A stretch of DNA of 64,000 bases from Candidatus Moranbacteria bacterium RIFCSPHIGHO2_01_FULL_55_24 (lineage in GTDB: Bacteria; Patescibacteriota; Minisyncoccia; Moranbacterales; UBA1568): NCBI GenBank assembly GCA_001786575.1, contig MFRW01000005.1, positions 23,581 through 87,580 on the forward strand, written 5' to 3'. This document shows positions 6,621-29,434 of the stretch, in pieces. Position numbers and translations under genes: made by a program. Below the pieces are notes generated by a model, which was not told where the DNA came from, did no database searches, and was given only the letters and a program-made list of their open reading frames with translations. The first letter of the stretch is position 1. Each line of letters opens with the position of its first letter.

Positions 6621-6687
6621 TTTGCTTAACTATGGTATACTTGGTGTTGAGGTGCTCCATATCGGAAGGCGCTTTTCCTGGTTTGCT

Positions 6688-8895
6688 ATGACCATTTTCG
6701 AAAATAAAAAGAAAAGGAACGGAGTTCTCGCGCTAACGCTTGCTTTGATATTCTTTGCAGGCGTTTTTGTATTTTTTGGAGCAGGAATAGTACATGCTGA
6801 ATCAGGATCGGTGGGGTATAACTCTGCTGTGCAACTTGGAGAGGCGGCAGCGAGCAATAGCGGAGGGGGCATGTTTGGATGGATAAGAGATGGCGTGATC
6901 TATGCTTTTAAAACCGTTCTTTACTGGGTTTTTCAATTGATGGGATGGGGGGTGTCCGTGGCGGTCACAATCTTCGGTTGGGCGATCAATCCGGAATACG
7001 TCTCCGGCCCGAACGGTTTCTTCAATCTGCCGGCAGTATATGACATGTGGAAATTCGTGCGAGATTTCCTGAACCTCTTCTTTATTCTCGCGCTCCTTTT
7101 CGCGGCCTTCGCAACGATTTTCCAGATAGACAAGTACAGCTACAAGAAGATCCTCTTGAAACTCGTTATCGCAGCGCTCATGGTGAACTTCAGTTTCCCT
7201 ATCTCCCGAGCGCTCATCGATGTGACGAATGTCCCGATGTATTTTTTCGCGAATTCTTTGATAGCGGATACCAATAATCCGAGCGCAGCTTTTGGGTCAG
7301 CGTTAAGCGCTTCGAAATTAGAGAATATTTTAGTTCCGCCAGCAGCCCAAGATGATCTGGACAAGATTGATACGTCACGATTGCTCGCAGCAATCGTGTT
7401 CATGTTTCTGTTCGCAGTCACGCTTCTGGTGCTGGCTGTGCAGTTTATCATCCGTCTCATCGCGCTTATCATTCTCGTTATTCTTTCGCCGATCGGGTTC
7501 GTGATGCCGGCTGTTCCGGGACTCCAGAAGTATGGAGGGCAATGGTGGGATAATTTCCTGAAGTATGCATTCTTCGGCCCGGCGGCGATGTTCATGCTGG
7601 TGCTTGCGACTCACTTCTTTGATGCTATCGGCGGAGCGAATAGCGGCACGTATAAGAACTTTCAGGCGGCAAGCCAGACTTCTGCTGCTGTCAACAGTGA
7701 CTTCATCGCTTCCATGGCGATGTTCTCCATCCCGATCGTGATGCTCTGGTTCACTATCGGTATTTCCGGGAAATTCGCTATTGCTGGCGCATCGGCCTCT
7801 ACCGCTTGGGGATACAAGGCAGGCAATTGGGGCAAGCGAAAATTATATGACAACCGCATAGGCCGGGGATTGTACCGTGGCGGAAAGAAGGCTGTTAGCG
7901 AAGGGAAGATCGCCGGCTTTGACTACGGGAACAAGAGGCTGGGCAAATATCTGTCGGGCAACTATTGGAAGCAGCCGAGCAAGATTGAAGCTGGTATTGC
8001 CGGCGGTGTCTACGGAGGCAAGGCCGGTGCTCGCCAGGAAATCGATAACGAAAGACATAAAGCCGTACTTAAAAGGGCGAAAGAGATTAAGGAAAGCAAT
8101 GAGAGCAATGAAACGAATAGGATCGGTCTCAAATCTTCGAGTCTGGTCGAAAGACAGGCTCGCGCCCGGGCTTTGGCCGAGGCTGGAGCCATCAAGACTC
8201 CGGAACTTCTCCTCCAGGCTCTCGAAGCCAATAAGGATAATCAGGGAATTGTCGATAAGGAACTGCATGAGTTCGTGCAAGACAAGGCTCATTCCGATGC
8301 CTGGGACGGCGTATCCGACAGGTACAAGAAAGATCCGGAATTCAAGCAGAAATACGATGCAATGGTTGAGAATCCTTCTATGTATCTGCGGGATGAAAAA
8401 ACCGGAAAATATGTCGATCATAATGGCAAAGAAGTTGATGCGGAGAAGAGAGTCGCTAGCAGCGCGCTGGAAGGATTCTATAGCAAGATCAAGAAAGAAG
8501 GCGAACTTCAGGTACGCGTGGATTATGATGCCCAGCAGTTTATGAAGGCAGGCAAGTCCGAGAGTGAAGCCAAGAGCCTGGCGTATGAGAAGCACATCGC
8601 GAAATTGAGCGCTGATGACTTGGCAAAGCAGGGAAGCATACTGTCTGTCCTGAAGAAGATGGATGATAAGGGTGAGCCCAATAAGAATTATGATCCGGAG
8701 CTTGTCGACTACTTCAAAGGTAAAACCAAGGATGACCCGCAGTACTACCAGGAGGCTCTGAAGAAGATGAAGAAGGGGAGCCGTGAAATTTGGCGGCAAG
8801 CGATCGATGGAGTTCAAAAAGAACAAAAGGAGGGACTAAAAGAAGGGTCGCGCGAATGGGCAGAGGCTGAATGGAAAAAGAAGCAAGGGGCTTAA
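6688..8895 (+). CDS. VirB6/TrbL-like polytopic membrane protein with long charged C-terminal coiled-coil extension (PrgH/TcpH-like)
   Basis: ATG at 6688 with signal/anchor MTIFENKKKRNGVLALTLALIFFAGVFVFFGAG. At least 6 predicted TM helices (FLNLFFILALLFAAFATIF, LLKLVIAALMVNFSF, LLAAIVFMFLFAVTLLVLAVQFIIRLIALIILVILSPIGFVMPA, YAFFGPAAMFMLVLATHFF, MAMFSIPIVMLWFTIGISG). About 350 aa of K/E-rich hydrophilic tail. Extended -10 TGGTATACT lies just upstream (6633-6641). Confidence 0.6.
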   Translation: MTIFENKKKRNGVLALTLALIFFAGVFVFFGAGIVHAESGSVGYNSAVQLGEAAASNSGGGMFGWIRDGVIYAFKTVLYWVFQLMGWGVSVAVTIFGWAINPEYVSGPNGFFNLPAVYDMWKFVRDFLNLFFILALLFAAFATIFQIDKYSYKKILLKLVIAALMVNFSFPISRALIDVTNVPMYFFANSLIADTNNPSAAFGSALSASKLENILVPPAAQDDLDKIDTSRLLAAIVFMFLFAVTLLVLAVQFIIRLIALIILVILSPIGFVMPAVPGLQKYGGQWWDNFLKYAFFGPAAMFMLVLATHFFDAIGGANSGTYKNFQAASQTSAAVNSDFIASMAMFSIPIVMLWFTIGISGKFAIAGASASTAWGYKAGNWGKRKLYDNRIGRGLYRGGKKAVSEGKIAGFDYGNKRLGKYLSGNYWKQPSKIEAGIAGGVYGGKAGARQEIDNERHKAVLKRAKEIKESNESNETNRIGLKSSSLVERQARARALAEAGAIKTPELLLQALEANKDNQGIVDKELHEFVQDKAHSDAWDGVSDRYKKDPEFKQKYDAMVENPSMYLRDEKTGKYVDHNGKEVDAEKRVASSALEGFYSKIKKEGELQVRVDYDAQQFMKAGKSESEAKSLAYEKHIAKLSADDLAKQGSILSVLKKMDDKGEPNKNYDPELVDYFKGKTKDDPQYYQEALKKMKKGSREIWRQAIDGVQKEQKEGLKEGSREWAEAEWKKKQGA

Positions 8896-8913: not shown

Positions 8914-10104
8914 ATGGGAGGAAACAAAATAACAAAACGGATTTACTATCCCCTTCTCTCTTCAGAATCTCTGTCGGGAGGGGTTCAGGCTACGGAAGAG
9001 ATGTTGTCCGTATGGGATGCGTTCGATAAGATTGCTCCTGAAAAGCAGGATGTTTTGACGAGCGAAGAAATGCCTCAAAGAATCTCTGATTTTCAGGGCC
9101 AGCTGGGCGTGAGCGACCAGGAAATAGAGAAGTTGAGCATTCTGATCCGCAAGTATTTTTTCGGGACGTTGGATGGAGCGCAGTTTTCCGGAGAAGTTCG
9201 GACTCTTTTCGGCCAAAAAACAGAAGCGGAAAAAGAGAATGCTATAAAATATATCCAAAAAGAAATTTTGGAACTGAAACCGAAACCGAAAATTGTCGAG
9301 AAGGAAAACTTGCAAGAAACCCCGCAGAATAATTCCGTAGTGATATACCCACTTCTCCAAGCGCTTTCCAAATATGAAGGGCTTGGCAACCAGATGGTGA
9401 CGAACGAGCGCATTCACATCAAATCCCAGCCGGAGCCGGTCCGCCCGTCGCTTTTCAATTGGCTCAAATGCTACCGCGATGAGCTCGGTATCGGCCAGCA
9501 CAACAGCGTGCAGCGCGGGCAGTTCCTCTTCCGTTCCGAGAACGGCCGCCGCTTGAATCCCGAGGAGCGCGAGCGTATCAATCTGATACTGAAGTCTGTC
9601 GAAGAGAATTTCCCGCTCCAGATCGATGCACGCCGGCAGGAAATCATCTTCCCGAAGTTCGAGTTCGAGTCGGTCTCGGAGCGCCCGGCCCAGGAATCGA
9701 GAGACGCCTCTCCTCGGATAGAGCTCGCTTTCGGCGGGGCGACCTTCGCCAAAGGCCCGAGTTTCGATGCGCATGGAGAGAATGCAGAGAAAGCACCGGC
9801 ACCGCTTCCTCCTCGGGAAACAAAGAGCTCTGTACCGAACGGCAACCGGTTCACCGTTACGCGCGAGGCTCCGATGGGGAAGCTCCTCGGAGTGAAAGCT
9901 TTCCAAGAGACGGAGGAATCCCCAGCCGGAACCATGAGTTTCTCGTCGAGCCATACGCTCCCGGCAGAACAGGAAGAAAAAGTGCAAGCGACGGGTCAGA
10001 ATCAGGGAGCGAAATTGAAGCCACGGGAGATCAACCCCTTCCATATCCGCCCAGTCAGCCTAGGAGAGGAAAAGAAAAGCCGTAAAGAAACCTCACGCCT
10101 ATGA
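8914..10104 (+). CDS. hypothetical protein in T4SS-like operon
   Basis: ATG at 8914. Protein-like K/E-rich composition, unlike the R/L-rich antisense ORF 8962-10044. Its stop TGA overlaps the next start (ATGA at 10101). Confidence 0.5.
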   Translation: MGGNKITKRIYYPLLSSESLSGGVQATEEMLSVWDAFDKIAPEKQDVLTSEEMPQRISDFQGQLGVSDQEIEKLSILIRKYFFGTLDGAQFSGEVRTLFGQKTEAEKENAIKYIQKEILELKPKPKIVEKENLQETPQNNSVVIYPLLQALSKYEGLGNQMVTNERIHIKSQPEPVRPSLFNWLKCYRDELGIGQHNSVQRGQFLFRSENGRRLNPEERERINLILKSVEENFPLQIDARRQEIIFPKFEFESVSERPAQESRDASPRIELAFGGATFAKGPSFDAHGENAEKAPAPLPPRETKSSVPNGNRFTVTREAPMGKLLGVKAFQETEESPAGTMSFSSSHTLPAEQEEKVQATGQNQGAKLKPREINPFHIRPVSLGEEKKSRKETSRL

Positions 10105-10511
10105 TGTTCAATGTTCCGCAATTCATCGATGTCGAAGACAAGATCGCCGGTCCGCTTACCTGGCGCCAGATCCTCTGGATGATCGGGATGGGCGCGACGC
10201 TCCTCACGTTCTACAACCTTTTCGATAGCACGCTCTTCTTCATCATCTCTGTTCCGACGGTGCTTCTCTTCGCGGCTTTCGCATTCTATCGGCCCAATGG
10301 CATGTCGATGACCGCATTCTTCCTTCACGCGGTATTTTTCTTCTTCCGGCCGAAGGTTTCCGTGTGGGAGAGACCCGCGACTGTCCGGCGGATGCCGCAA
10401 GCGCCGAAGACATCGGAAAACGGGACCCAAGCGCCGCCAGCCGCGAAAGATTTGAGCGAAGATCGGCTGCACGAGTTGGCAAAAATCCTCGATCGGCATG
10501 GAAGAGTATGA
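10101..10511 (+). CDS. PrgI/VirB3-like small membrane protein (two TM helices) immediately upstream of VirB4
   Basis: Two TM helices (ILWMIGMGATLLTFYNLF; FFIISVPTVLLFAAFAFY). Size and position match VirB3/PrgI analogs. Translationally coupled to the upstream gene. Confidence 0.5.
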   Translation: MMFNVPQFIDVEDKIAGPLTWRQILWMIGMGATLLTFYNLFDSTLFFIISVPTVLLFAAFAFYRPNGMSMTAFFLHAVFFFFRPKVSVWERPATVRRMPQAPKTSENGTQAPPAAKDLSEDRLHELAKILDRHGRV

Positions 10512-10543: not shown

Positions 10544-11224
10544 ATGGAATTCCTCAAACCAAAACAAAAAGCTGGCGCATCCAGCACGCAGCGCTACGTT
10601 GACGTCGAAGAAATCCGCGACGGCATCATCGTGCTCAAAAGCGGAGCGCTCCGTTCGGTGCTTCTCGTCTCTTCGCTCAATTTCGATCTCAAGTCGAGCG
10701 AGGAGCAGGATGCGATTATCAGCCAGTACCAAGCTTTTCTGAATTCGCTCGACTTCCCGATCCAGATCGTTGCGAGCTCGCGACGCTTCAATGTGGAGCC
10801 GTATCTGGAGCTCTTGAACGACAAAGAGGCCGTCCAGGAAAACGAGCTTTTGCGTTTCCAAATCGCGGAATACAAGAATTTCATCAAGAATCTGACGGAT
10901 GTCTCGAACATCATGTCCAAGTATTTCTATGTCGTCGTGCCGTTCTCGCCGTCGGAAGATGAGAGGAGCAGCTTCCTCGGGAAGCTGACAGGAATCTTCA
11001 ATCCGCAGAAAACCGTGAATCTCCACGGAGAGCTTTTCGAGACCTATCGGAGCCAGCTCTTCCAGCGTGTCGAACAGGTGACAGCAGCGCTTTCGGGTAC
11101 CGGAGTGCGGGCGACAGCACTCACGACCGAAGAGATCATCGAACTCCTTTATAACAGCTACAATCCATCGCTCTTCGCCACATCGATCATCAAGAACGTC
11201 GATGCGCTGGAACTGATAAAATAA
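10544..11224 (+). CDS. VirB4/TrbE/CagE family N-terminal domain (split from the ATPase domain by an in-frame TAA)
   Basis: RYVDVEEIRDGIIVLKSGALRSVLLVSSLNFDLKSSEEQDAIISQYQAFLNSLDFPIQIV matches the VirB4 N-terminal region. Same reading frame as 11231-13078, with a single TAA at 11222-11224. Confidence 0.6.
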   Translation: MEFLKPKQKAGASSTQRYVDVEEIRDGIIVLKSGALRSVLLVSSLNFDLKSSEEQDAIISQYQAFLNSLDFPIQIVASSRRFNVEPYLELLNDKEAVQENELLRFQIAEYKNFIKNLTDVSNIMSKYFYVVVPFSPSEDERSSFLGKLTGIFNPQKTVNLHGELFETYRSQLFQRVEQVTAALSGTGVRATALTTEEIIELLYNSYNPSLFATSIIKNVDALELIK

Positions 11225-11230
11225 ACACCC

Positions 11231-13078
11231 ATGGAGCCAGGAATCGTATTCACCGCCAAGGAAGAAGAGAAGCCCCCAAGCGACAAGAAGGGCTTGTTCC
11301 ATGCGGAAAAAGCGAGCGAGAGCGATCTCCTCTACCAGAAAGGCTTGGCGACGATCCGGGATCTCATCGCGCCGCCGGCGATCAAGATCACGCCGAACAC
11401 CATGCAGATCGGCGAAGTGGTGTCGCGCACCTTTTTCGTCATCGCGTACCCGCGCTACTTGAGCACCAACTGGTTTTCGCCGATCATCAACATCGACTTC
11501 CCGATGGACATCTCTCTCTTCATCCATCCGATCGATACGGCCGAGATCTTAAAGAACCTGCGCAAATCCGCGACCCAGGTGCAGTCGCAGATCCACATCG
11601 AGGCGGAGGGGGGCAAGATCCGCAACCCGGTCCTCGAAACCGCTCTCGAAGATATCGAAGGACTGCGGGACAAGCTCCAGCAGGGAACGGAAAAATTCTT
11701 CCGGTTCGGCCTCTACATCACGCTCTATGGAGCCGATGAGAAAGACTTAAACGAGAAGAGCCAGGCGATCGAGGCGCTTCTCGAAGCCCAGCTCGTCTAT
11801 ACCAAGCCGGCCGTCCTGCGGATGGACCAGGGATTCGCGGCGACGCGCCCGCTCGCCAACGATGTCTTGGATGTGGCAAACAACCTGAACACCGAGCCGC
11901 TTTCCACGACCTTTCCGTTCGTCTCCTCGGACCTTTCCTCGAACCAGGGCATCCTCTACGGCATCAACCGGCACAACAACAGCCTGGTCTTGTATGACCG
12001 TTTCAATCTGGAGAATGCCAACATGGTCGTGTTCGCCAAGTCCGGTGCCGGTAAGAGCTATATGGTGAAGCTCGAAGTGCTGCGTTCGATGATGTTCGGG
12101 ACGAGCGTTATCATCATCGACCCGGAAAACGAATACAAGCATCTCTGCGAGGCGGTCGGCGGCACGTTCCTCAAGATCTCGCTCAATTCCGAAGCGCGTC
12201 TGAACCCGTTCGATCTTCCGAAGCGCGTGGACGATGAGGACGGCGAGAGCGTGTTTCGGAGCAGCGTGGCGAATCTCATCGGCCTGCTCCACCTCATGCT
12301 CGGGACGGTCACACCGGAAGAAGACTCGATCCTCGACCGCGCCATCCGCGAGACCTATGCGCTCCGCGATATCACCGAGCACAGCGACTACCAGGGCCTG
12401 ACGCCCGAGGCGTTTCCTACGATGTCGGACCTGTACCAGGTACTCCAGAATATGGACGGTGCAGAATCGCTTGCCATGCGGCTCGAGCGCTATACCGAAG
12501 GAATCTTCGGCGGGTTCCTCAACCAACAGACCAATGTGTCTACCGAGAATCAGCTGATCGTTTTCAACATCCGCGACTTGGAGGACGAGCTCCGGCCGAT
12601 CGCCATGTACATCGTGCTTCAGTTCATCTGGAATGAGATCCGCTCGCAGATGAAGAAGCGCCTCGTCGTGGTGGATGAGGCCTGGGTCATGATGCAGAAC
12701 GAAGATGCGGCTTCGTTCCTCTTCGGAATCGCGAAGCGCTGCCGCAAATACTATGCGGGCCTGACCACGATTACCCAGGATATCAGCGACTTCATGGCAT
12801 CCCGCTACGGCAAGCCGATCATCACGAACTCATCGCTCCAGCTCCTCCTGCGCCAGTCGCCGGCGACTATCGATGCGGTGTCCGAGACCTTCTATCTGAC
12901 CGATCACGAGAAATTCCTGCTCCTGGAGAGCAACGTCGGAGAGGGGATATTCTTCGCCGGGACCAAGCATGCCGCGATCAAGGTGATCGCTTCCTATAGC
13001 GAAGACCAGATCATCACTTCCGACCCGCGCCAGCTCTTGGAAATCGAGGAAGCGAAGCGGGATTTCGGGTCTTCATGA
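11231..13078 (+). CDS. VirB4/TraC-type T4SS ATPase (middle and C-terminal ATPase domains)
   Basis: Walker A VVFAKSGAGKSYMVK. Walker B LVVVDEAWVMM. VirB4 middle-domain region IKITPNTMQIGEVVSRTFFVIAYPRYLSTNWFSPIINIDFPMDISLFIHP. Combined with the upstream fragment the length is about 843 aa, typical for VirB4. Confidence 0.85.
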   Translation: MEPGIVFTAKEEEKPPSDKKGLFHAEKASESDLLYQKGLATIRDLIAPPAIKITPNTMQIGEVVSRTFFVIAYPRYLSTNWFSPIINIDFPMDISLFIHPIDTAEILKNLRKSATQVQSQIHIEAEGGKIRNPVLETALEDIEGLRDKLQQGTEKFFRFGLYITLYGADEKDLNEKSQAIEALLEAQLVYTKPAVLRMDQGFAATRPLANDVLDVANNLNTEPLSTTFPFVSSDLSSNQGILYGINRHNNSLVLYDRFNLENANMVVFAKSGAGKSYMVKLEVLRSMMFGTSVIIIDPENEYKHLCEAVGGTFLKISLNSEARLNPFDLPKRVDDEDGESVFRSSVANLIGLLHLMLGTVTPEEDSILDRAIRETYALRDITEHSDYQGLTPEAFPTMSDLYQVLQNMDGAESLAMRLERYTEGIFGGFLNQQTNVSTENQLIVFNIRDLEDELRPIAMYIVLQFIWNEIRSQMKKRLVVVDEAWVMMQNEDAASFLFGIAKRCRKYYAGLTTITQDISDFMASRYGKPIITNSSLQLLLRQSPATIDAVSETFYLTDHEKFLLLESNVGEGIFFAGTKHAAIKVIASYSEDQIITSDPRQLLEIEEAKRDFGSS

Positions 13079-13091
13079 TTAAGAAAATGTT

Positions 13092-13613
13092 ATGGCTTTC
13101 GTGTCTGATTACGCTTCCGGGGAATCCCAAGATGAGGCACTTGCCCAAGAGCTCGAGTACCATACGCGCCTGACGGCGGAACTCCGCGCCCGGGCAGCGG
13201 CGCAGTCTTCTTACGAGACGGTTTCCTCCCAGATCGAACGGGTGAAAAAGAGCAAAGCGAGCCTTTTCGCGTACGCCCCGGCACTCCTCTTAGCCGCTCT
13301 GAAGGACACGCTCGATCTCGTCGCTATAGGCTCTATCCCGGTTATCGGGACGATAATCACGATCTGTGTCTCCTTTCTTATCTTCCTGTCTCTGCTTATC
13401 ACGCGAGCCAACAAAGATCTGATCGATTCGAGATTCGTTCTCCGCATGGGTATCGCCGTCATCGCCGGCTTCATCGTGGAGGGATTCTTCTTCGGGATAA
13501 ATTTCCTGCCGATCGAAGTATTCACGGTACTCGCTGTCCTCTGGATGGATAGACACTTGTCCGATGAGCAGATCCAGGCTTTTTCTGAAAAGGCGAAAAG
13601 CATGAAAAGGTAG
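13092..13613 (+). CDS. hypothetical membrane protein (3-4 TM) in T4SS-like operon
   Basis: ATG at 13092. Hydrophobic segments LLLAALKDTLDLVAIGSIPVIGTIITICVSFLIFLSLLI and MGIAVIAGFIVEGFFFGINFLPIEVFTVLAVLW. Confidence 0.5.
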   Translation: MAFVSDYASGESQDEALAQELEYHTRLTAELRARAAAQSSYETVSSQIERVKKSKASLFAYAPALLLAALKDTLDLVAIGSIPVIGTIITICVSFLIFLSLLITRANKDLIDSRFVLRMGIAVIAGFIVEGFFFGINFLPIEVFTVLAVLWMDRHLSDEQIQAFSEKAKSMKR

Positions 13614-13662: not shown

Positions 13663-14319
13663 ATGAGAACATTCTCGCTCGCAGAAAAAAAGTTTATCGG
13701 GACCAGCGCCCTGATTCTTTTCTGTCTCCTTTTCTTCGCTTTTTTCGAGGAGAGTTCGCAGTTGAGCGGGGTGCTCCAGGGTTTCATTATCGGTATCGTT
13801 TTCTTCTTGGTCATTCCGCTCGCGTACTGCAGGATGGTCTTGCGGGAGCCGCTTTCCAATATGGGGTGGCAAAGAGGAGAAGGTATCTTCGGGTTCTTTT
13901 GGCCGCTTCTCTCTGTCGCGATCGCCTTTGCGGGCATTTTCTTCCTTACGTGGCAGTTCCCGGCATTCGCAGAGGCGTATACGTTCCCGGTCGCGGTGGA
14001 GACGAACTTCCTCTGGTTCGTGCTTTATGAGCTCTTCATGGTCCCGTTCATCGTCCTCATCTACGAGTCATTCTTCCGCGGATTGGTGCAGATGCTCTGG
14101 CTCCAAGCGCTCGGCGCATGGGCGATTCTGGTACAGGCGGCGCTTTTCACAGGCCTGGTCTATGTGAGCGACGGCTTCACCTGGGAGACGCTCCCGCTTC
14201 TCGTCTTTGCGCCTTTTGCGGGGTATATCGCCTATAAGACGCACTCGCTCTGGTATGCATTTCTCGGAAGCTGGACATTTCTCTTTCTGACTGACGTACT
14301 CTTTTTGATTCTCCGTTAG
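13663..14319 (+). CDS. CPBP/Abi-like polytopic membrane protein (degenerate CAAX-protease motifs)
   Basis: 6-7 TM helices. IYESFFRGLVQ resembles CPBP motif 1 (EExxxR). Later motifs are not canonical. Preceded by extended -10 TGGTATACT (13644-13652). Confidence 0.4.
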   Translation: MRTFSLAEKKFIGTSALILFCLLFFAFFEESSQLSGVLQGFIIGIVFFLVIPLAYCRMVLREPLSNMGWQRGEGIFGFFWPLLSVAIAFAGIFFLTWQFPAFAEAYTFPVAVETNFLWFVLYELFMVPFIVLIYESFFRGLVQMLWLQALGAWAILVQAALFTGLVYVSDGFTWETLPLLVFAPFAGYIAYKTHSLWYAFLGSWTFLFLTDVLFLILR

Positions 14320-14336: not shown

Positions 14337-17129
14337 ATGTTTACATTCGGAAAACGAAAAAAGACCCTTCTCGCTATCCTCATGGTCGGCCAGATGTTCA
14401 TAGGGAGCGCCCTGCCGGCTGCAGCGCTCTTCGGCGGGATCAAGATCCCGTCGGCATCCAAGGTGGTCTCGGACATCGAGAAGCGCTATCATATCGATCT
14501 TGAGAATGTCCAAGATCAGGGAGAGTTGTTCAATGTCCTTTCGAATAAACAGCCTGCTCCGGAGGTCTCTTTATTTTTCTCGCCGTCCGACCCTCGCCTC
14601 GGGGAGAAGATTTCTGCCAAGGCTTTTCCGGTTTATTTTATCAACAATGAAGAATCTCTCTATTACACATGGTACCTGAAGCGCGCTGATTGCGGACTGA
14701 CGAACTCCCCAAGCGCTGCGGTCAGGAGCGCTTGCGATCGGAATAATGATAACCGCATCACCGTAGAAGACTGGAAGATCGAGGCGGTGCGTATCATCGC
14801 CCAGAACGGCTATGACAATACCGCTACCAGCTACTCCTCGGACTCCGATGATGACGGCTATCGTGCGCGTTTCGGCGGCGATAACAGGGCGAATACGCCG
14901 GATTATTGCTACATCCACGACAATTCTTCGGGGAAGAATTACGAGCTGACAGACAGTTCTTCCGACACGAGTTTCTCCTGTCCGGCCGGGACAACTGCAG
15001 TGTGCGTGATCGAGGATGAAGGAGTCGAGCCGGGAGAGATCCCAGAGGGCACATTGGGAACCAGCAGCGCAAGCGATACGTTCGTTGTCGGCAATACCGA
15101 TGAGTGCAGCGTTTCGGGGCTTCCGGCCTGTACAACGAGCGGAACGCCTTCTTGCGGAACAGGAACGCCGCGCTGCGTCGCGAATCCGGAAAGCAATACT
15201 ACTTCCTGCGGTACGGCTTTGAGCACCTGCAGCACGACTTCTTCCGGTAATGCAGATCCTTCCTGCAAGCACCTTTTCCCGAAGGCTTCCGGCGCGACGA
15301 CTGGCGACGGGTCATTCAATGCGAGTGAAGAACGCTTCTGGGGAACCGACCCGAATGATCCGGACACAGCCGACAACGGCAACAAGGACGAAGCGAATGT
15401 CACCGGTCTCGGCCGTTCTACCTTCACCTGGAACTATGCGACAGGCGACCAGGTGGGCGTAGCGGTAGAAGGCACCTCGATGATCGCTACCAAGCATGAC
15501 AATTCTTCGGTGATGATCATGTGGGCCTTCGCCAAGAAGGACTGCCCAGTAGAGGATACCGGATCATATACCCAGTCCATCAAGAATTACAGCGTCGAGA
15601 TAGAGACGGCCGACATGGATCTCAATAATTGTCTGGAACGCAACCTCGTCGACCCGGCCCAAGGCGGCCAGGCGACGAATCTGGAAGTGGAAGTTTCGGC
15701 AACCCCGAATGAGCCGGTGAACGATGAGACCGGGGACGAGTCGGGCGATCTCGTCATCGCCCAGGCGAGCGTGAGCAATGGAGTCCAGGATTTGTCGAGC
15801 ATACTCTTCGATTGGAAGGTAGATATCAGCAATAATATCCAATTCAGTTCCTCGATCGGGCCAACCGCCGATGTCACTGCGGATCTTCGCAGTCTCTCGC
15901 TTTTGAGCAACGCGAAGGGGAATGCTCTGGACGCTGTCCGGCTGAAGCTTGATATTCCGCGGAGCGCGAGCTTGGGCGGCCGGCCGCTTTCGAGCTATCT
16001 TTCCGGAGATGTGGGGTATCTCCGCTTCACTTCCCGGGTGAGCGAGAATTTCTCGCAGGGAATCGCTCGCCAGGGGAGGAGCGATGTGATCGTGAAGTTC
16101 ACTTCCACCCAGAGGAAGATCGTCGCCTATAAGGCAGAACCGGCTCTCGTAGCAGGAAAGATGCAAGTGAGACTCCCTGCCAATGCCGGAGCCATCTGCA
16201 ATGATGATGCCTTGGATCGCAATGTCTGCCGTGTCGTCGAGAACGAAATCGTCGGCTTGAGCGTCGATGAGAATGATCTCACGAATTTCAATTGGACAAT
16301 CAATGGATCGCCGCTCCGCTGTTCCGCAAGCGCCGTATCGCCGGACTGCACCGACGGCCAGCAGAATGCGGTGAATTTCTTCCCGGTCACGGGGAACGTG
16401 GGCGATACCTACACGGTCACGCTCACGGCAAACGACGTGACGAATGGCAAGACCGTCACGCTCTCGCGCTCATTCAATATCGTCTCGCCGCAAGTACGGA
16501 TCGTTTCCGGCGATGAGAACGCCGCGTGGCCGAAATTCCTCGGCCAGTACAGGGATGTGACGGGGACAGCGACGGATTGCCCCGGAGGCCTCTGCGATGA
16601 TGTGAGCAAGAATGTCTTCGAAGCATTCTCCGGCGACAGCCTCACGCTCCAGGCGAAGTTTATCCCGAGCTTCCTCGCGAGTTCCGCCGAAAGGCAGTGG
16701 ACCATCGATAACGAAAACGTATCCGAGACCAGCCCGAACGAACTTGTCTTCCCGGCCGATAAAGCGCCCTTCATGGTCTACAATATCGGGCTCGCGGCCC
16801 GCGTGATGCAGTCCAACGATACCCGGAGGGCTCTCCTGGATATCTGGAATATTTCCCCGCTCGATTCGCCAGAAGTGCATTTCTCTTCAGGGATACAGAT
16901 CGAGCTCCAGGATCCGACTCTTGTCCGCGGCGATGAAACCCCGGTTCAGAAGTATCTGGCCGCTCTGGTATCGTATGTCCCGGCATCGCTTCTTTTCTCC
17001 TTCCGTATCCTTCTAAGCGGAGCGCTCATCCTCTTCGCCACCGGATTCGTGATGGCCATCCTGCCAGGCGGAAGAGCGGCCGAGGCGATTGCTCCAAGTC
17101 CGGGCAGATCCGGCAGAAACGATTGGTAA
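14337..17129 (+). CDS. large secreted Cys-rich/Ser-Thr-rich surface protein with C-terminal membrane anchor (candidate adhesin)
   Basis: Signal peptide MFTFGKRKKTLLAILMVGQMFIGSALPAAALFGG. Cys-rich block (CSVSGLPACTTSGTPSCGTGTPRCVANPESNTTSCGTALSTCSTTSSGNADPSC). Hydrophobic C-terminus (LLFSFRILLSGALILFATGFVMAIL). Confidence 0.6.
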   Translation: MFTFGKRKKTLLAILMVGQMFIGSALPAAALFGGIKIPSASKVVSDIEKRYHIDLENVQDQGELFNVLSNKQPAPEVSLFFSPSDPRLGEKISAKAFPVYFINNEESLYYTWYLKRADCGLTNSPSAAVRSACDRNNDNRITVEDWKIEAVRIIAQNGYDNTATSYSSDSDDDGYRARFGGDNRANTPDYCYIHDNSSGKNYELTDSSSDTSFSCPAGTTAVCVIEDEGVEPGEIPEGTLGTSSASDTFVVGNTDECSVSGLPACTTSGTPSCGTGTPRCVANPESNTTSCGTALSTCSTTSSGNADPSCKHLFPKASGATTGDGSFNASEERFWGTDPNDPDTADNGNKDEANVTGLGRSTFTWNYATGDQVGVAVEGTSMIATKHDNSSVMIMWAFAKKDCPVEDTGSYTQSIKNYSVEIETADMDLNNCLERNLVDPAQGGQATNLEVEVSATPNEPVNDETGDESGDLVIAQASVSNGVQDLSSILFDWKVDISNNIQFSSSIGPTADVTADLRSLSLLSNAKGNALDAVRLKLDIPRSASLGGRPLSSYLSGDVGYLRFTSRVSENFSQGIARQGRSDVIVKFTSTQRKIVAYKAEPALVAGKMQVRLPANAGAICNDDALDRNVCRVVENEIVGLSVDENDLTNFNWTINGSPLRCSASAVSPDCTDGQQNAVNFFPVTGNVGDTYTVTLTANDVTNGKTVTLSRSFNIVSPQVRIVSGDENAAWPKFLGQYRDVTGTATDCPGGLCDDVSKNVFEAFSGDSLTLQAKFIPSFLASSAERQWTIDNENVSETSPNELVFPADKAPFMVYNIGLAARVMQSNDTRRALLDIWNISPLDSPEVHFSSGIQIELQDPTLVRGDETPVQKYLAALVSYVPASLLFSFRILLSGALILFATGFVMAILPGGRAAEAIAPSPGRSGRNDW

Positions 17130-24217: not shown

Positions 24218-24318
24218 TATTGACAGAAGGCTTTTTTCCCTGTAGAATTCAGTCAATAAGAAAAGGCGTGCACGCGCCTTTTTTCAGTGTTACAGCCTTT
24301 TTATCCCTCTCCATAACT

Positions 24319-26106
24319 ATGCAGATCAGAAACATCGCTATCATCGCGCACGTTGACCACGGCAAGACCACCTTGACGGATGCTTTGATGCGCCAGACAG
24401 GCATGGTGACCGCTGAAGGGGTCTCTATGGACTCGAACCAGCTGGAGCGCGAGCGCGGCATCACCATCTATGCCAAAAACGCCGCTCTCTTCTACAAGGA
24501 CACGAAGATCAATATCGTGGATACTCCGGGCCATGCCGATTTCGGCTCCGAAGTGGAACGGGTGCTCCGCTCTATCGACAGCGTCGTGCTCGTCGTGGAT
24601 GCCCAGGAAGGACCGATGCCGCAGACGCGTTTCGTCCTGAAGAAGTCCCTCGAGCTGGGGCTGAAGCCGATCGTGGTCTTGAACAAGATCGACAAGCCGG
24701 CCGCCCGGCCGAAAGAAGTCGCAGAGATGGTGTACGAACTCTTCTTGGATCTCGGCGCGAACGATGAGCAGCTGGATTTCAAAATCGTCTATGCGATCGC
24801 ACGCGAGGGCGTGGCGAGCCTCTCTCTCGAAACCAAGGGTGAGAACCTCTTCCCGCTTCTCGACACGCTGCTTGAAGTGGTGCCTCCGGCCGAACAGGCC
24901 GTAGACAAGCCGCTTTCCGCACAGCCCTTCAACCTGGGCTATGACAACTTCGTCGGACGTCTGGCGGTTGCCCGCGTCTACGAAGGCAAGGTTTCCGTGA
25001 ATGATTCCGTGCTCGTACGGAACGTTTCCGGAAAGAGCGAATCAGGCAGGATCGTAAAGCTGTTCACCTTCCGCGGACAGGAACGCGTCGAGACGAATCA
25101 GGTGGAGGCAGGGGATATCGTCATGATCGCCGGACTGCCGAATATCGAGATTGGCGATACTATCTGCGTGAATTCCGACCAGGAGCTTCTGCCCGCTATC
25201 GCGATCGACGAGCCGACTATCTCGCTCAACTTCTTCGTGAACGATTCTCCGTTCGCCGGACGCGAAGGAAAATTCGTGACGAACAAGCAGATCCGCGAAC
25301 GTTTGGAGAAAGAATTGGAAGTGAACGTGGGACTCCGTATCGACTTCGGCGATGCCTCCTACAAGGTCTATGGCCGCGGCGAACTGCACGTAGCAATCCT
25401 TCTGGAGAACATGCGCCGCGAAGGCTATGAGGTCCAGGTATCCCAGCCGCAGGTGATCATCAAGGAAGTGGACGGCCAGAAAGTCGAGCCGTTCGAAGAA
25501 GTGACCGTCGAGTGTCCGCAGGAGGCCTCGGGAACCGTCATCGAGAAGCTCGGCAAGCGCAAGGGCATCATGACCGATATGCGCGAAGGGAGTGGAGGCT
25601 ATACCCGCATGCTCTTCGATGTTCCGACTCGCGGGCTTTTGGGCTACCGCGGCGAGTTCATGATCGATACCCGCGGCGAGGGCACCCTCTATACCCGGGT
25701 GCTCGGTTTCCGTCCGCATGCCGGAGAAATCAAGAAACGCGATGAGGGATCGATGATCTCTATGGTTACCGGCAAAACCGCAGCCTTCGCACTGTACAAT
25801 CTGCAAGACCGCGGGGTTCTGTATGTAGGTGCCGCCGTAGAGGTCTACGAAGGCATGGTTATCGGCAATGTCACCAAGGGGTCTGACATGGCAGTAAACC
25901 CGATCAAGGGGAAGCAGCTGACCAACATGCGTTCTTCCGGCACTGATGATGCGATCAAGCTCATCCCAGCCTGGGAGCTTTCTATCGAGCGGGGATTGGA
26001 AACCATAGCGGAGGATGAATACCTCGAAGTCACGCCGGAAAGCGTCCGCCTCCGCAAGCAGTTTTTGAAAGAGACTGATCGGACAAAAGCCGGCCGCAAG
26101 AAGTAA
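24319..26106 (+). CDS. typA: translational GTPase TypA/BipA
   Basis: [56 protein letters not shown]-like domains and BipA C-terminal domain. ATG at 24319. Confidence 0.9.
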
Positions 26107-26127: not shown

Positions 26128-26159
26128 GGGCCAGGAGGAGACTCCTGGCCCTCTTTTTT
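26128..26159 (+). terminator. rho-independent terminator after typA, overlapping an extended -10 promoter (TGATACAAT at 26172-26180)
   Basis: 9-bp stem GGGCCAGGA/TCCTGGCCC, loop GGAGAC, then TCTTTTTTG. Directly followed by TGaTACAAT. Confidence 0.6.
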
Positions 26160-26204
26160 GCTGTTTTTCTGTGATACAATAGAGAAAACAAAAACAGGCT
26201 CCAT

Positions 26205-27290
26205 ATGTATCAGAAAACTGCAAGAATCTTCTTTCTCGGGATGTTCTTGTTTTCTTTTTTCTCGCCGCTGCCGGCGGACGGCGCGGGTTTGGTGCCCTGC
26301 GGCCAGAATGTGAACGATCCTGCCACCGATATCGATGAGTCGGCAAAATGCACCATGTGCCATCTCGTGGTGGCCGGAAACGGGATCATCAACTGGCTCA
26401 TGGGGATCATGACGATCCTCGCGATCGCGATCGTCTTCGCTATGGCGATCTATTACATCATCTCGGCCGGGAACCAGGGGATGATGGAGACCGCCAAAAG
26501 CGGCATCAAGGCGGCACTCATCGGGTTTGCGGTCATGCTTTCGGCCTGGCTTATCGTCAATACCACGCTCCGGATCTTCGGCGCTACTATTCCGGGACTT
26601 ACTAGCTCTAGCGGAGGCTTCACCTTCACTTGCGATATCTCGTCTTCTGCCGGCACATCCAGCGCAGGCGCCGGAGCAGGTGCCGGAGCAGGCGTCGGAG
26701 CAGGTGCGCCAGCCGGAGGCGGTGCGGCCTGCGAGAACATCGATGCTGCCAAGGCGCGGCTTTCGGCAGGCGGTACGGTCTGCAACGGGACCGGTTCCTG
26801 CCCGTCTTGCAATACCCAGCCGTTCGATTCCTTGATCGAGAGGTATGCCAAGCAGTACAAAGTCTCTCCTGGACTGATCCGCGGAGTGATCGCTCGGGAA
26901 TCAAGCTGTGATCGGATTAAGGAGAAGAAGGAGAGCGACGGCAGTTCAAGCTGCGGGCTGATGCAGGTGAATACGCGTTCTTCTACATACTCCTGCGCCC
27001 AATTGAAAGATTCAGCCACGGGGATCATGGAGGGGACGCGTATCCTGGCAGCGGCTTACTCTACAGCACAAAGCCTGAAAGCCAAGTATGGCAATAGGGT
27101 GACCGTGAACGAACTCGCAGCAGCGATTCATAACGCGGGAGCGGGAGAGAGCGCGGCGAGCGTCGACTGTTCGTCGGCGAGCGGTTGGCCCACTATCCCG
27201 AAATGGGGATGCCCTATCAATCCAGGGAACGCTCAATTCAATGCGTGCGCCATCAGGGATTACGCTTGCAATGTCGGAGCGTGTAAATAG
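26205..27290 (+). CDS. fusion protein: signal peptide + VirB2/TrbC-like pilin domain + Gly/Ala linker + VirB1-like SLT lytic transglycosylase
   Basis: N-terminal part has two TM helices around YIISAGNQG, the motif shared with the downstream pilins. GAGAGAGAGVGAGA linker. SLT motifs: ARESSCD (catalytic E-S), GLMQVN, IHNAGAGE (AYNAG-like). Confidence 0.65.
   Translation: MYQKTARIFFLGMFLFSFFSPLPADGAGLVPCGQNVNDPATDIDESAKCTMCHLVVAGNGIINWLMGIMTILAIAIVFAMAIYYIISAGNQGMMETAKSGIKAALIGFAVMLSAWLIVNTTLRIFGATIPGLTSSSGGFTFTCDISSSAGTSSAGAGAGAGAGVGAGAPAGGGAACENIDAAKARLSAGGTVCNGTGSCPSCNTQPFDSLIERYAKQYKVSPGLIRGVIARESSCDRIKEKKESDGSSSCGLMQVNTRSSTYSCAQLKDSATGIMEGTRILAAAYSTAQSLKAKYGNRVTVNELAAAIHNAGAGESAASVDCSSASGWPTIPKWGCPINPGNAQFNACAIRDYACNVGACK
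26663..26710 (+). repeat. in-frame tandem 12-nt repeat (GGAGCAGGNGNC x3-4) encoding the GAGAGAGVGAGA linker
   Basis: gcaggcgcc ggagcaggtgcc ggagcaggcgtc ggagcaggtgcg. Confidence 0.5.
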
Positions 27291-27302: not shown

Positions 27303-27587
27303 ATGATGTTTCACGCAGCACTTGTCTCTGTGGCCCATGCCGGAGCGATCACGGACGCGACACCGGTCGCCGGCATCCTTCAGAATGTTTTGGAATTTCT
27401 GTTGTCAATCGTTGGCGTGCTTGGTATAATCGGGTTAGTTATCGCTGGATTCCTGTATCTGTCGGCCGCCGGGAATATGAGGCAGACGAATCTTGCCAAG
27501 ACGATGACAGTCGCTTCGCTCATCGGCATCATAATCGCCTTGGGAGCGCTGGTCATCGTTTCACAGTTAAGCAAATTCTTCAGTTAA
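27303..27587 (+). CDS. VirB2/TrbC-like pilin-family small membrane protein
   Basis: Two TM helices flanking FLYLSAAGNMRQTNLAKTMT. C-terminal VIVSQLSKFF is shared with the last pilin. Confidence 0.6.
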   Translation: MMFHAALVSVAHAGAITDATPVAGILQNVLEFLLSIVGVLGIIGLVIAGFLYLSAAGNMRQTNLAKTMTVASLIGIIIALGALVIVSQLSKFFS

Positions 27588-27658
27588 GAGCAGAACGTAA
27601 AAATAAAAACAGAGCGCCTCGCAGGGAGGCCTCGTACATGGAAGGAGGTGAGAGAAGT

Positions 27659-28027
27659 ATGACACAAATCAAAAAAGCTTTGTACGGCGCATACGCTACC
27701 GCGTTGGCTTTGTCTCCTTTGGCGGCATCCGCACAATGGGGCCAGGGCATCAGTAATGCTGGCGAAGCAGATCTCCCGAGCGGAAGCATCATCGGTATCA
27801 TCGAACAGACCATGTACTGGCTTCTGGCCATCTTGGGTTTCATCGGTATTATCGGTTTCGTTATCGCTGGTATTCTCTATCTCACCGCAGCTGGCGATGA
27901 GAGCCAGATCGAGAAGGCCAAGAATGCTATGACGTATTCCATCATCGGCGTCATCGTCGCTCTGATCGGTTTCGTTATCATCCAGGCTGTCACGCAGTGG
28001 CTCGGTGGAGGAACCTCCAGTTTCTAA
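27659..28027 (+). CDS. VirB2/TrbC-like pilin-family small membrane protein
   Basis: Strong SD GGAGGTG 8 nt before the ATG at 27659. Signal peptide. ILYLTAAGDESQIEKAKNAMTYSIIGVIVALIGFVIIQAV. Confidence 0.6.
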   Translation: MTQIKKALYGAYATALALSPLAASAQWGQGISNAGEADLPSGSIIGIIEQTMYWLLAILGFIGIIGFVIAGILYLTAAGDESQIEKAKNAMTYSIIGVIVALIGFVIIQAVTQWLGGGTSSF

Positions 28028-28050
28028 GGACCACTTGTCCGGACCAAAGC

Positions 28051-28079
28051 AATCCGCCTGCAAGGCGGATTGTTTTTTT
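28051..28079 (+). terminator. rho-independent terminator
   Basis: Stem AATCCGCC/GGCGGATT with loop TGCAA, then GTTTTTTT. Confidence 0.55.
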
Positions 28080-28120
28080 ATGCGGAAAAGAGTAGTATGG
28101 AGGCAGTAATAAAAGGATTT

Positions 28121-28519
28121 ATGTCCAAAAAACAAATACAAAGAAGCCTTCTATCCGTATTCTCAATTCTCCTGTTCGCGGGCGCGGTGCCTGTCCTTCA
28201 GGCGGTGACCACTTGCCCCACAGGCTATAATTTAGTTTCCGGAGTCTGTATTCCGAGTAACACCGGATTGCCTGACACGCCCGTCATCGACATTATCGGC
28301 GAGTTCATGTTCTGGCTCCTTTCCATCTTCGGAATGCTGGCGGTCATCGCTTTCGTGATTTCCGGTATCCAGTACATCACTTCGGCCGGCGATGAGGGCC
28401 AGGCCGAGACAGCCAAGAACAACATGAAGTACGCTATCATCGGCGTCATCGTCGCATTGAGCGGACTCGTTATCATCCAGGCTGTAGAGGGGGTACTTAC
28501 TGCGACGCCTGGTTTCTAA
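28121..28519 (+). CDS. VirB2/TrbC-like pilin-family protein with Cys-containing N-terminal segment
   Basis: ATG at 28121 with signal peptide MSKKQIQRSLLSVFSILLFAGAVPVLQAV. TTCPTGYNLVSGVCIP. IQYITSAGDEGQAETAKNNMKYAIIGVIVALSGLVIIQAV. Confidence 0.6.
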   Translation: MSKKQIQRSLLSVFSILLFAGAVPVLQAVTTCPTGYNLVSGVCIPSNTGLPDTPVIDIIGEFMFWLLSIFGMLAVIAFVISGIQYITSAGDEGQAETAKNNMKYAIIGVIVALSGLVIIQAVEGVLTATPGF

Positions 28520-28528
28520 TACGGGACT

Positions 28529-29434
28529 ATGCAAAACACAAAAAAATTCTCACGGAACCTCCTAGCGGCAATATTGTTTTTCTTGGTGAGCGCAGGATTC
28601 GCCGGCATAGCGGAGGCCCAGCAGCCAGGCACAACAGCCACTTGTCGAGCAGTAAGCGGGACCTGTATTCCTGGTAGTCCCCATCCGCAATATTCTAGTT
28701 GCGGTCATGATTGGGGGCGGCTGGATTGTGCGGAGAGTTACAAGTGCTGCACGCTGAAAACCAGTACGACATCTGCCAACACTAACGCTAACGCCAATAC
28801 CACAGGAGGCACTACTTCTCCGACAGGTGGCGGAGGAGGCGCTCCCAAAGCAGGCAACGGCGGCGGAGCAACTGCACCGAATGCTCTCGGCGGCGGAAAT
28901 GCCACATCGACATCGATAAACATTACGAATCCCCTCAAGTTCGAAACAGTCGAGGAAGTGGTGACGAGCCTTCTGGGGACGCTCCAGGGCATCGTCGTGA
29001 TTCTCGCCTTGGTATTCATCGTCATCGGTGCGCTTCTCTATATCACTTCGGCTGGGGATGAGGGCCGGATAAAGACCGCCAAAGCGGCTATCACGGCGGC
29101 GCTTATCGGTCTGGCTATCGCGCTGGCCGCGCCATCGTTCTTGAAGGAAATAGGAGGAATCCTGGGCTGGGGCGCAGTCGATAGCAGCGCCGCGGCGGGA
29201 GCGCAGACGCTCTCGGAGATCGCGATGAATGTCTTGAATTTCCTCCTCTCGATTGTCGGCGTACTGGCGATCATCATGCTCATCGTAGGCGGCATCATGT
29301 ACCTCACCGCTGCCGGAGACGAGGACCGGGTCGATACCGGCAAGAACATCGTGAAGTATGCGATCATCGGTATTATCGTGGCTTTCGCCTCTCTCGTGAT
29401 TGTCAGCCAATTGGCAAAATTCTTCGCACCGTAA
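28529..29434 (+). CDS. secreted protein with Cys-rich N-domain, Gly/Thr/Asn-rich linker and two tandem VirB2/TrbC-like pilin domains
   Basis: Signal peptide. ATCRAVSGTCIPGSPHPQYSSCGHDWGRLDCAESYKCC. Two motif copies: LLYITSAGDEGRIKTAKAAITAALIGLAIALAA and IMYLTAAGDEDRVDTGKNIVKYAIIGIIVAFASLVIVSQLAKFF. Confidence 0.6.
   Translation: MQNTKKFSRNLLAAILFFLVSAGFAGIAEAQQPGTTATCRAVSGTCIPGSPHPQYSSCGHDWGRLDCAESYKCCTLKTSTTSANTNANANTTGGTTSPTGGGGGAPKAGNGGGATAPNALGGGNATSTSINITNPLKFETVEEVVTSLLGTLQGIVVILALVFIVIGALLYITSAGDEGRIKTAKAAITAALIGLAIALAAPSFLKEIGGILGWGAVDSSAAAGAQTLSEIAMNVLNFLLSIVGVLAIIMLIVGGIMYLTAAGDEDRVDTGKNIVKYAIIGIIVAFASLVIVSQLAKFFAP

Follow-up and report, generated by a model that had tools for sequence, protein, structure and literature searches.

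A type IV secretion system pilin module fused to a GH23 muramidase domain at the head of a pilin operon in a Moranbacteria genome

A pilin module and a muramidase domain in one polypeptide

We analysed 64,000 nucleotides of the genome of Candidatus Moranbacteria bacterium RIFCSPHIGHO2_01_FULL_55_24, one of the ultrasmall Patescibacteria (Moraniibacteriota; contig MFRW01000005.1, positions 23,581 to 87,580 of the forward strand). This whole stretch is called the window here, and all positions are given within it. The subject of the analysis is a forward-strand gene at 26205-27290, which heads a five-gene array of pilins of the kind found in type IV secretion systems (T4SS). A first-pass annotation had read its product as a single polypeptide, in which a pilin-like module with two transmembrane (TM) helices is followed by a flexible linker and a VirB1-like soluble lytic transglycosylase (SLT) domain. 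We confirmed that the gene encodes one polypeptide, in which a T4SS pilin module is joined to a cell-wall-cutting enzyme. The open reading frame (ORF) starts with ATG, contains zero internal stops and encodes 361 amino acids (aa), and its coordinates are exactly those of the first-pass annotation. Pfam detected T4SS_pilin (PF18895) at aa 59-119 with 32.2 bits (cut-off 26.6) and SLT (PF01464) at aa 210-316 with 26.1 bits (cut-off 21.3). Since both matches exceed the curated thresholds, the two-domain call is more than chance. No family scored above its cut-off in an NCBIfam scan of the protein.

The protein begins with a Sec-type signal peptide (aa 1-28, MYQKTARIFFLGMFLFSFFSPLPADGAG; 26205..26288). 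A basic n-region and a hydrophobic core are present in it, the cleavage position is a predicted one, and in the alignment its end is marked by a conserved A-A followed by an invariant (L/F)VPCG. The head-pilin module (aa 29-146; 26289..26642) was delimited with Pfam T4SS_pilin, hhalign and an AlphaFold2 hairpin. It is followed by a low-complexity linker of approximately 30 residues, mainly Gly, Ala and Ser (aa 147-175; 26643..26729), and by a GH23 (SLT or goose-lysozyme-like) muramidase domain (aa 176-361; 26730..27290 including the stop codon), which was recognised with Pfam SLT, PDB profiles and Foldseek. All four parts are on the forward strand. Hydropathy analysis located two hydrophobic helices with centres at approximately aa 63-81 and 108-113. 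AlphaFold2, run with an alignment of 37 sequences, predicted a helical hairpin (H51-86 and H91-128), a disordered linker (residues 139-172, predicted local distance difference test (pLDDT) <50) and a C-terminal domain modelled with confidence (pLDDT >90). The N-terminus contains neither a class III signal nor the prepilin-peptidase motif (G/A then F/M-T-L-x-E), and the type IV pilin families of Pfam gave zero matches with the protein. Because it has no class III signal peptide, the fused protein is not a type IV pilin.

The head-pilin module is composed of an N-terminal, Cys-bearing ecto-segment (C32 and C49-T-M-C52-H53), TM helix 1, the loop GNQGMMETAKSG, TM helix 2 and the sequence FTFTC143D. 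The motif YIISAGNQG, by which the first-pass annotation had recognised the module, lies at aa 84-92 (26454-26480), and A97-K98 of the loop is invariant in the 37 full-length sequences. The hairpin was modelled with a pLDDT of 80.7. When the module was compared with the small pilins of its own array, hhalign gave a probability of 98.3% (E 2.6e-14). The first-pass annotation had suggested checking the protein with SLT and TrbC/VirB2 profiles. The SLT profile was passed and so was T4SS_pilin, whereas the head module itself fell short of TrbC/VirB2 (PF04956), which two other pilins of the array passed (28.1 and 33.7 bits, cut-off 27.9). Searches of the PDB sequences with pilin-module profiles gave only spurious repeat matches (designed "Pizza" proteins, approximately 4 bits per stretch) or nothing. 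Judged by its profile matches and two predicted helices, the module is a member of the T4SS_pilin / VirB2-TrbC superfamily.

Four Cys residues around the hairpin are at least 90% conserved in the 37 full-length sequences. Across 46 loci we found C32, C49-T-x-C52-H53 and the C143 of FxFxCD to be invariant (C4, C21, C24 and C115 in module numbering; the residues lie at aa 29-53 and 139-144, 26289-26363 and 26619-26636). This Cys/His set is missing from the other pilins of the array. It could form two disulfides or a metal site that would staple the N-terminal ecto-segment to the segment after TM helix 2, in a way reminiscent of the cyclised T-pilin. Formally, C49-T-x-C52-H53 is a CXXCH motif. 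We set the heme c reading of this motif aside as unlikely, because to our knowledge bacteria of the candidate phyla radiation (CPR) generally lack cytochrome c maturation.

The catalytic motifs of the C-terminal domain are those named in the first-pass annotation, with R-E232-S-S at 26895-26906, GLMQ at aa 251-254 and AIHNAG at aa 307-312. In the 37 full-length sequences E232, C250-G251, M253, N310 and G312 are invariant, and S233 and L252 are at least 90% conserved. The domain contains 12 Cys, 11 of them at least 90% conserved, and ends in a Cys-rich C-terminal extension (GWPTIPKWGCPINPG...ACNVGAC). Profile comparison with PDB sequences placed goose-type lysozymes at the top (3gxk, 8.5e-9; 153l, 4.8e-8), followed by EmtA/MltE (2y8p among the matches, 2.8e-7), MltC and Slt70 (1qsa among the matches, 4e-5), with a weaker match to EtgA, an enzyme of type III secretion systems (6e-4). 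Foldseek returned LtgA, g-type lysozymes and MltE with a probability of 1.00. Thus, profiles, predicted fold and catalytic motifs assign the domain to the GH23 / SLT superfamily.

Lytic transglycosylases are not known to have a conserved second acid. In the HMMER alignment, the Asp of MQVD in goose lysozyme 153l is paired with Asn256 of the fused protein (GLMQVN), and the earlier goose-lysozyme Asp (GWGD) is paired with Asp245, a position that varies between N and D in the family. Since the second acid of goose lysozyme is not conserved in the family, the domain would be compatible with a lytic transglycosylase, a point of chemistry that sequence cannot call. The VirB1-like label of the first-pass annotation stood in part. 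The GH23 fold and the encoding together with T4SS genes agree with it, while a VirB1-specific model or a plasmid relative was not found; when 72,556 plasmids (PLSDB) were searched by tblastn with the SLT domain, there were zero matches. In sequence, goose-type lysozyme and MltE are closer to the domain than any VirB1 model is, and therefore "VirB1-like" describes a probable role, a functional analogy, and not orthology; NCBIfam, PDB-profile and PLSDB comparisons do not place the domain among VirB1 orthologues.

The linker contains the motif GAGAGAGAGVGAGA (aa 155-168; 26667-26708), in line with the flexibility assigned to it earlier. A 12-nt tandem repeat, GCAGGCGCCGGA, at 26664-26704 (TRF: period 12, 3.4 copies) codes for part of it. 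Such a repeat is prone to slippage, which speaks for an assembly or frameshift artefact that joined two separate genes, and the first-pass annotation had pointed to 26640-26720 as the region where a frameshift or stop might lie. We observed an unbroken frame across this region. All 36 full-length homologues, which come from independent assemblies and are 39-99% identical, are fused likewise, and in the 37-sequence alignment the linker differs in length, always in frame. P0001, the closest homologue at 99% identity in the A1 alignment, differs in this region only by an in-frame deletion of 4 aa inside the 12-nt repeat, which indicates an in-frame slippage polymorphism. Further, we scanned one genome per GTDB species, obtained 59 loci, almost all labelled Moran(i)bacteria, and re-annotated them with sub-profiles; there was no split version among them. 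Because the homologues are fused and their linkers vary in frame, we rule out a frameshift or misassembly for practical purposes, and we regard the fusion as genuine and maintained by selection.

The pilin operon and its surroundings

The fused gene is separated from the upstream ORF (24220-26106), which by translation encodes an EF-G-like GTPase (the syntenic gene in locus L004 has BipA_C), by the strong intrinsic terminator of this typA/bipA gene (26128..26161, forward strand; 26128-26151 plus T-run). The terminator has a 10-bp stem with 8 GC pairs, followed by the T-run. Since it lies 3' of the typA-like gene, the fused gene opens its own transcription unit. As the first-pass annotation had stated, it opens a pilin array, and four more T4SS_pilin ORFs lie downstream (27303-29434), all on the forward strand. 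Pilin 2 (27303..27587, 94 aa) is a minimal VirB2-type protein that scores 30.0 bits with T4SS_pilin and 28.1 bits with TrbC/VirB2. Pilin 3 (27638..28027, 129 aa) and pilin 4 (28070..28519, 149 aa) score 37.5 and 44.7 bits with T4SS_pilin. In pilin 5 (28529..29434, 301 aa) a low-complexity linker connects a Cys-rich N-terminal domain to two pilin modules in tandem (T4SS_pilin 78 bits in 2 stretches; TrbC 33.7). The intergenic gaps are 9-50 nt, with 12 nt between the fused gene and pilin 2.

Other T4SS components are encoded further upstream on the forward strand. These are a PrgI/VirB3-like protein (10101..10511; Pfam PrgI 47.6 bits), 15.7 kb upstream of the fused gene, and a VirB4-like ATPase (11231..13078; Pfam P-loop_TraG 102.6 bits, AAA_10 and TraC_F_IV). 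Judged from these matches, the window encodes a monoderm-type T4SS core of PrgI/VirB3 and VirB4, 13-16 kb upstream of the pilin operon. Therefore the fused gene is co-encoded with T4SS genes in two respects, as it is operonic with four VirB2-type pilins and shares the window with PrgI and VirB4. Large ORFs flanking PrgI and VirB4 (6622-8895, 8914-10104, 10544-11224, 13092-13613 and 14337-17129) had no significant Pfam match; they are presumably divergent VirB6/TrsD-like and other patescibacterial T4SS components. Eight proteins around VirB4 were scanned with Pfam and none matched a wall hydrolase, and with the GH23 profile of the family the fused gene was the only match among all ORFs in the window.

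Just 3' of the VirB4 cluster, at 13663-14319 (forward strand), lies a gene for a CPBP/Rce1-like intramembrane protease (PF02517, 26.9 bits), a candidate pilin-processing enzyme. The region between the VirB4 cluster and the pilin operon contains housekeeping genes, namely those for the CCA-adding enzyme, IF-2, a methyltransferase, a solute-binding protein and TypA. Downstream of the operon there are genes for an SPFH protein, NusA, pyrophosphatase, trigger factor and ClpP. Elsewhere in the window (50398-52317, reverse strand) we noted a 639-aa protein with three Lamin Tail Domains and a PKD domain, which is probably a surface protein.

Homologues and passengers of the head pilin

Among approximately 5.8 billion proteins searched we obtained 49 relatives. 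Approximately 40 are full-length (34-98% identity, BLASTP), the majority from Candidatus Moran(i)bacteria. One was named "transglycosylase SLT domain-containing protein" in its source. In a profile search of 1.84 billion cluster representatives we obtained 343 proteins at E<=1e-30. Sub-profiles divided 192 proteins into 78 with both modules, 100 with the pilin module only and 14 with the GH23 module only; the 78 include dozens of representatives of 50%-identity clusters beyond the full-length homologues. However, 13 of the 14 "GH23-only" proteins begin with a divergent two-helix hairpin, and an alignment of 12 divergent-hairpin proteins matched the small pilins (hhalign 96%, E 2.8e-9). The GH23 subfamily thus occurs almost only on pilin-like hairpins. 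The combination of PF18895 and PF01464 is common in sequence databases, where it is annotated automatically. In the literature, including a survey from 2025 (PMC12102498), we came across no account of a muramidase joined to a VirB2-type pilin. This agrees with the first-pass annotation, which knew of no described example, and the architecture is undescribed rather than unseen.

The fused gene heads the same syntenic operon in related Moraniibacteriota at 55% and 35% identity. At 55% identity the order of genes is CCA-adding enzyme, IF-2, solute-binding protein, the pilin-SLT fusion, 5-6 pilins, NusA and pyrophosphatase. Many loci entitled "uncultured Bdellovibrionales bacterium" and derived from metagenome-assembled genomes (L006-L009, L011, L021, L027 and others) are syntenic with, and 43-59% identical to, Moraniibacteriota pilin arrays, and these titles are probably taxonomic mislabels. 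In one relative (L001:6920-7678) a gene for a DsbD/CcdA-type thiol-disulfide transporter lies a few genes upstream of the pilin array, which fits the many extracytoplasmic cysteines of these pilins; no equivalent was identified in the window.

The array is stereotyped. A Cys-stapled head pilin is followed by pilins of approximately 93 aa and approximately 125 aa at positions 2 and 3, and by a pilin of 130-200 aa at position 4 (some arrays have 1-2 more of this kind). In nearly all related arrays the last gene encodes a double-module pilin, and in some database proteins 6-7 pilin modules follow one another in a single chain (P0094, P0096 and P0166, for example). We observed that the head pilins differ in what they carry. 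Of those at the head of an array, 14 had SLT, 12 were bare (<=180 aa) and 10 had another passenger, while the counts for head pilins that were solo or at a contig end were 2, 2 and 17, respectively. At least 3 of the 10 array heads with another passenger gave sub-threshold matches to SLT_3 (PF18896, lysozyme-like). Passengers of solo head pilins reach several hundred residues, with heads up to 827 aa. Among database representatives we identified SLT_3 (7), SLT (3), subtilase (2), fn3 (2), CARDB and Calx-beta, as well as beta-rich or Cys-knot-like tails that had no Pfam match, and some proteins had large N-terminal extensions. The positional orthologue in Moranbacteria GCA_001784695.1 has the same head module and only a short Cys-rich tail.

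In a neighbour-joining tree of the head modules, the SLT, bare and other states were interleaved. One pair of Moranbacteria head pilins forms a natural comparison with and without SLT. The bare protein L035 (L035:2365-2823, 152 aa) and the SLT protein L063 (L063:5410-6486, 358 aa) share 90% identity across their first 148 residues, and L035 terminates just past the FTFTCD motif, 26 nt before the next pilin gene. Because the states interleave and such a pair exists, we consider SLT to be a passenger that was gained or lost recently and repeatedly. The SLT fusion is one state of a modular head pilin and not a fixed feature, and the head pilin would be a general carrier of swappable passengers. 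Modular VirB2-type pilins therefore exist as a widespread and apparently undescribed family with domains that would face the outside. No separate ORF matching this GH23 family was found within approximately 6 kb of the head gene in the 59 genome loci. With regard to the question of whether orthologues are fused or split, raised in the first-pass annotation, they are fused in many genomes, and bare or joined to another passenger in others.

A second lineage ties the hairpin-GH23 architecture directly to VirB4 clusters. On a 43%-GC patescibacterial contig (L065) a divergent pilin-like hairpin carries a GH23 domain that belongs to the same subfamily and also has the Cys-rich C-terminal extension. 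The gene is located within a T4SS cluster (TraC-like, VirB4, three ORFs, hairpin-SLT) that adjoins yidC-rnpA-dnaA. A second protein of this cluster has the same hairpin and a different tail (the two proteins are L065:5809-6816 and L065:3570-4427). The location of the gene inside the VirB4 cluster favours a role in assembly of the machine.

Possible roles and comparison with known systems

Patescibacterial T4SSs with arrays of VirB2-like proteins have been reported, and for Ca. Southlakia epibionticum such pilins are essential (PMC12102498, PMC10633639, PMC12857230). Gram-positive T4SSs are generally without VirB2 (PMC12857230). Quinonero-Coronel et al. (2025) stated in their survey that VirB1 is absent from most genomes with VirB2; they listed M23 and LysM as the only extra domains on VirB1 homologues and reported no pilin-hydrolase fusion (PMC12102498). 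Wall hydrolases associated with T4SSs help to assemble the channel by local degradation of peptidoglycan (PMC12102498).

We lean towards the reading that the fused protein is a membrane- or pilus-tethered muramidase, which opens peptidoglycan for the patescibacterial T4SS pilus. After Sec export and cleavage of the signal peptide, the hairpin would insert with both termini outside, like VirB2. In this orientation all 16 Cys (4 flanking the hairpin and 12 in the enzyme) would be outside the cytoplasm and the muramidase would be on the outer face of the membrane, the expected side for disulfides and for a peptidoglycan enzyme. The muramidase may be tethered at the site of pilus assembly, or carried as a minor or first-assembled subunit, so that the fusion could link it to the base of the pilus or to the filament. 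There it would cut glycan strands locally and let the T4SS pilus pass the cell wall, a job equivalent to that of VirB1, for which other T4SSs use a separate VirB1, PrgK, TraG or CwlT protein. In general, the interpretation made in the first-pass annotation was supported, with the qualifications that VirB1 is an analogy, that the fusion is not fixed and that it had been annotated automatically before.

Several observations weigh against the tethered muramidase. Activity, topology, processing and location of the protein are predictions from sequence and model, and the formation of filaments by patescibacterial VirB2-like proteins is an assumption. Among VirB1/IagB/P19-type models the sole NCBIfam match was IagB, with 13.8 bits against a cut-off of 208. 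The pilin operon lies 13 kb from VirB4, with housekeeping genes between them. Finally, 12 of the 36 array heads are bare and have no match to this GH23 family within approximately 6 kb. Together with the 90%-identical pair, this implies that the enzyme is either dispensable for the array or substituted from elsewhere, which fits an optional display function better than an obligatory role of the VirB1 type.

The main rival, possible although we would not expect it, is that the head pilin displays the muramidase as a weapon or drill, at the tip of the T4SS pilus as its first subunit or along it, and that the target is the peptidoglycan of a host bacterium instead of, or besides, that of the producer. 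Such a display or carrier role is favoured by the dispensability of SLT among near relatives and by the kinds of alternative passenger. The passengers belong to types that are usual for surface or attack functions (subtilase, fn3, CARDB, Calx-beta and two lysozyme-like families) and were swapped over short evolutionary scales, the linker is long and flexible, and the position at the head of the operon and the Cys-stapled module distinguish the head pilin from the other pilins. Modular type IV pilins likewise present grafted modules, probably at the tip (PMC8179133), and T4SS pilins of Patescibacteria are essential for epibiotic growth (PMC10633639). On the other hand, polymerisation of these pilins and the tolerance of a 20-kDa passenger in a VirB2-type filament are presumed, as are the host and lifestyle of this organism. 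We rate as unlikely that the protein is a pro-protein, from which SLT is cleaved off after TM helix 2 during maturation of the pilin and released into the wall as a soluble muramidase, in the manner of the C-terminal extensions of RP4 TrbC. TrbC-type pilins undergo C-terminal processing. A conserved FxFxCD-(T/S)SS motif directly follows TM helix 2 and precedes the variable linker, bare head pilins stop just past this motif, and the CPBP/Rce1-like protease gene is located beside the VirB4 cluster. However, the FxFxCD motif could equally be a structural disulfide or metal staple, and both the cleavage site and the link to the protease are putative. We give little credence to a housekeeping enzyme of wall remodelling that sits on a pilin-derived two-helix membrane anchor and has no role in the T4SS or pilus. 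The operon is flanked by typA, nusA, ppa, tig and clpP and is not adjacent to VirB4, as would suit such an enzyme, but 12 nt separate the fused gene from the first of the four pilin genes downstream, its own start is delimited by a terminator, and its position at the head of the array is conserved. The near-restriction of the GH23 subfamily to pilin-like hairpins, with a gene inside the VirB4 cluster in another lineage, also argues against it.

If the tethered muramidase is correct, at least part of the predicted wall-cutting function would be built into the first pilin of the array. The interchangeable passengers of the head pilin extend the principle of the "modular pilin" from type IV pili to T4SS pilins. 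In the one system that has been tested, the epibiotic lifestyle requires the patescibacterial T4SS and its pilin arrays (PMC10633639). A pilin-tethered enzyme would offer a testable handle on how patescibacterial pili cross cell walls, for which pairs with and without the enzyme exist at 90% identity. We also put forward, tentatively and as a rather doubtful proposal, that the Cys-stapled head pilin is the first-assembled tip subunit and presents swappable cargo (GH23/SLT_3 muramidases, subtilase, Ig-like adhesion domains) to the host envelope, with the muramidase as a drill bit for the cell's own wall and then for that of the host. If true, this would be a new mechanism of host penetration by episymbiotic ultrasmall bacteria, and it would account for the apparently missing VirB1 in many Patescibacteria.

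The arrangement in the window resembles that of Ca. S. epibionticum (SEML1_0014-0019) and of the surveyed genomes (PMC12102498) in its PF18895 proteins, with or without PF04956, in tandem arrays of 2-11 divergent pilins and in a monoderm-type T4SS with PrgI/VirB3 and VirB4. It differs in that Ca. S. epibionticum encodes its hydrolase, SEML1_0006 (phage-tail lysozyme, glucosaminidase and Cys protease), apart from the pilins, whereas here the enzyme is within the first pilin, and in that the array of the window is 13 kb from VirB4. With VirB1, P19, EtgA and IagB the fused protein shares the GH23 SLT fold, the Glu-Ser, GLMQ and NAG motifs and a genetic link to secretion-pilus genes. In contrast, those are soluble periplasmic proteins encoded apart from VirB2, and the Cys-rich C-terminal extension is unique to the domain described here. 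PrgK (pCF10), TraG (pIP501) and CwlT (ICEBs1) are similar as wall hydrolases dedicated to T4SSs in bacteria without an outer membrane. PrgK and TraG are anchored in the membrane by an N-terminal TM segment. Unlike the fused protein, none of the three has a VirB2-type hairpin; they have a single N-terminal TM segment or a lipobox, usually with an added CHAP or NlpC/P60 peptidase domain. The modular type IV pilins (PilB and PilC of Streptococcus sanguinis, CofB and ComZ) show the same design of a pilin carrier, a linker and a grafted module, in many alternative architectures that include enzymes (PMC8179133). They belong to an unrelated filament, begin with a class III signal peptide, possess one N-terminal helix and are assembled by PilB-type ATPases, while the carrier described here combines the two helices of a VirB2-type T4SS pilin with a signal peptide of the Sec type, so that the likeness is an analogy of design only.

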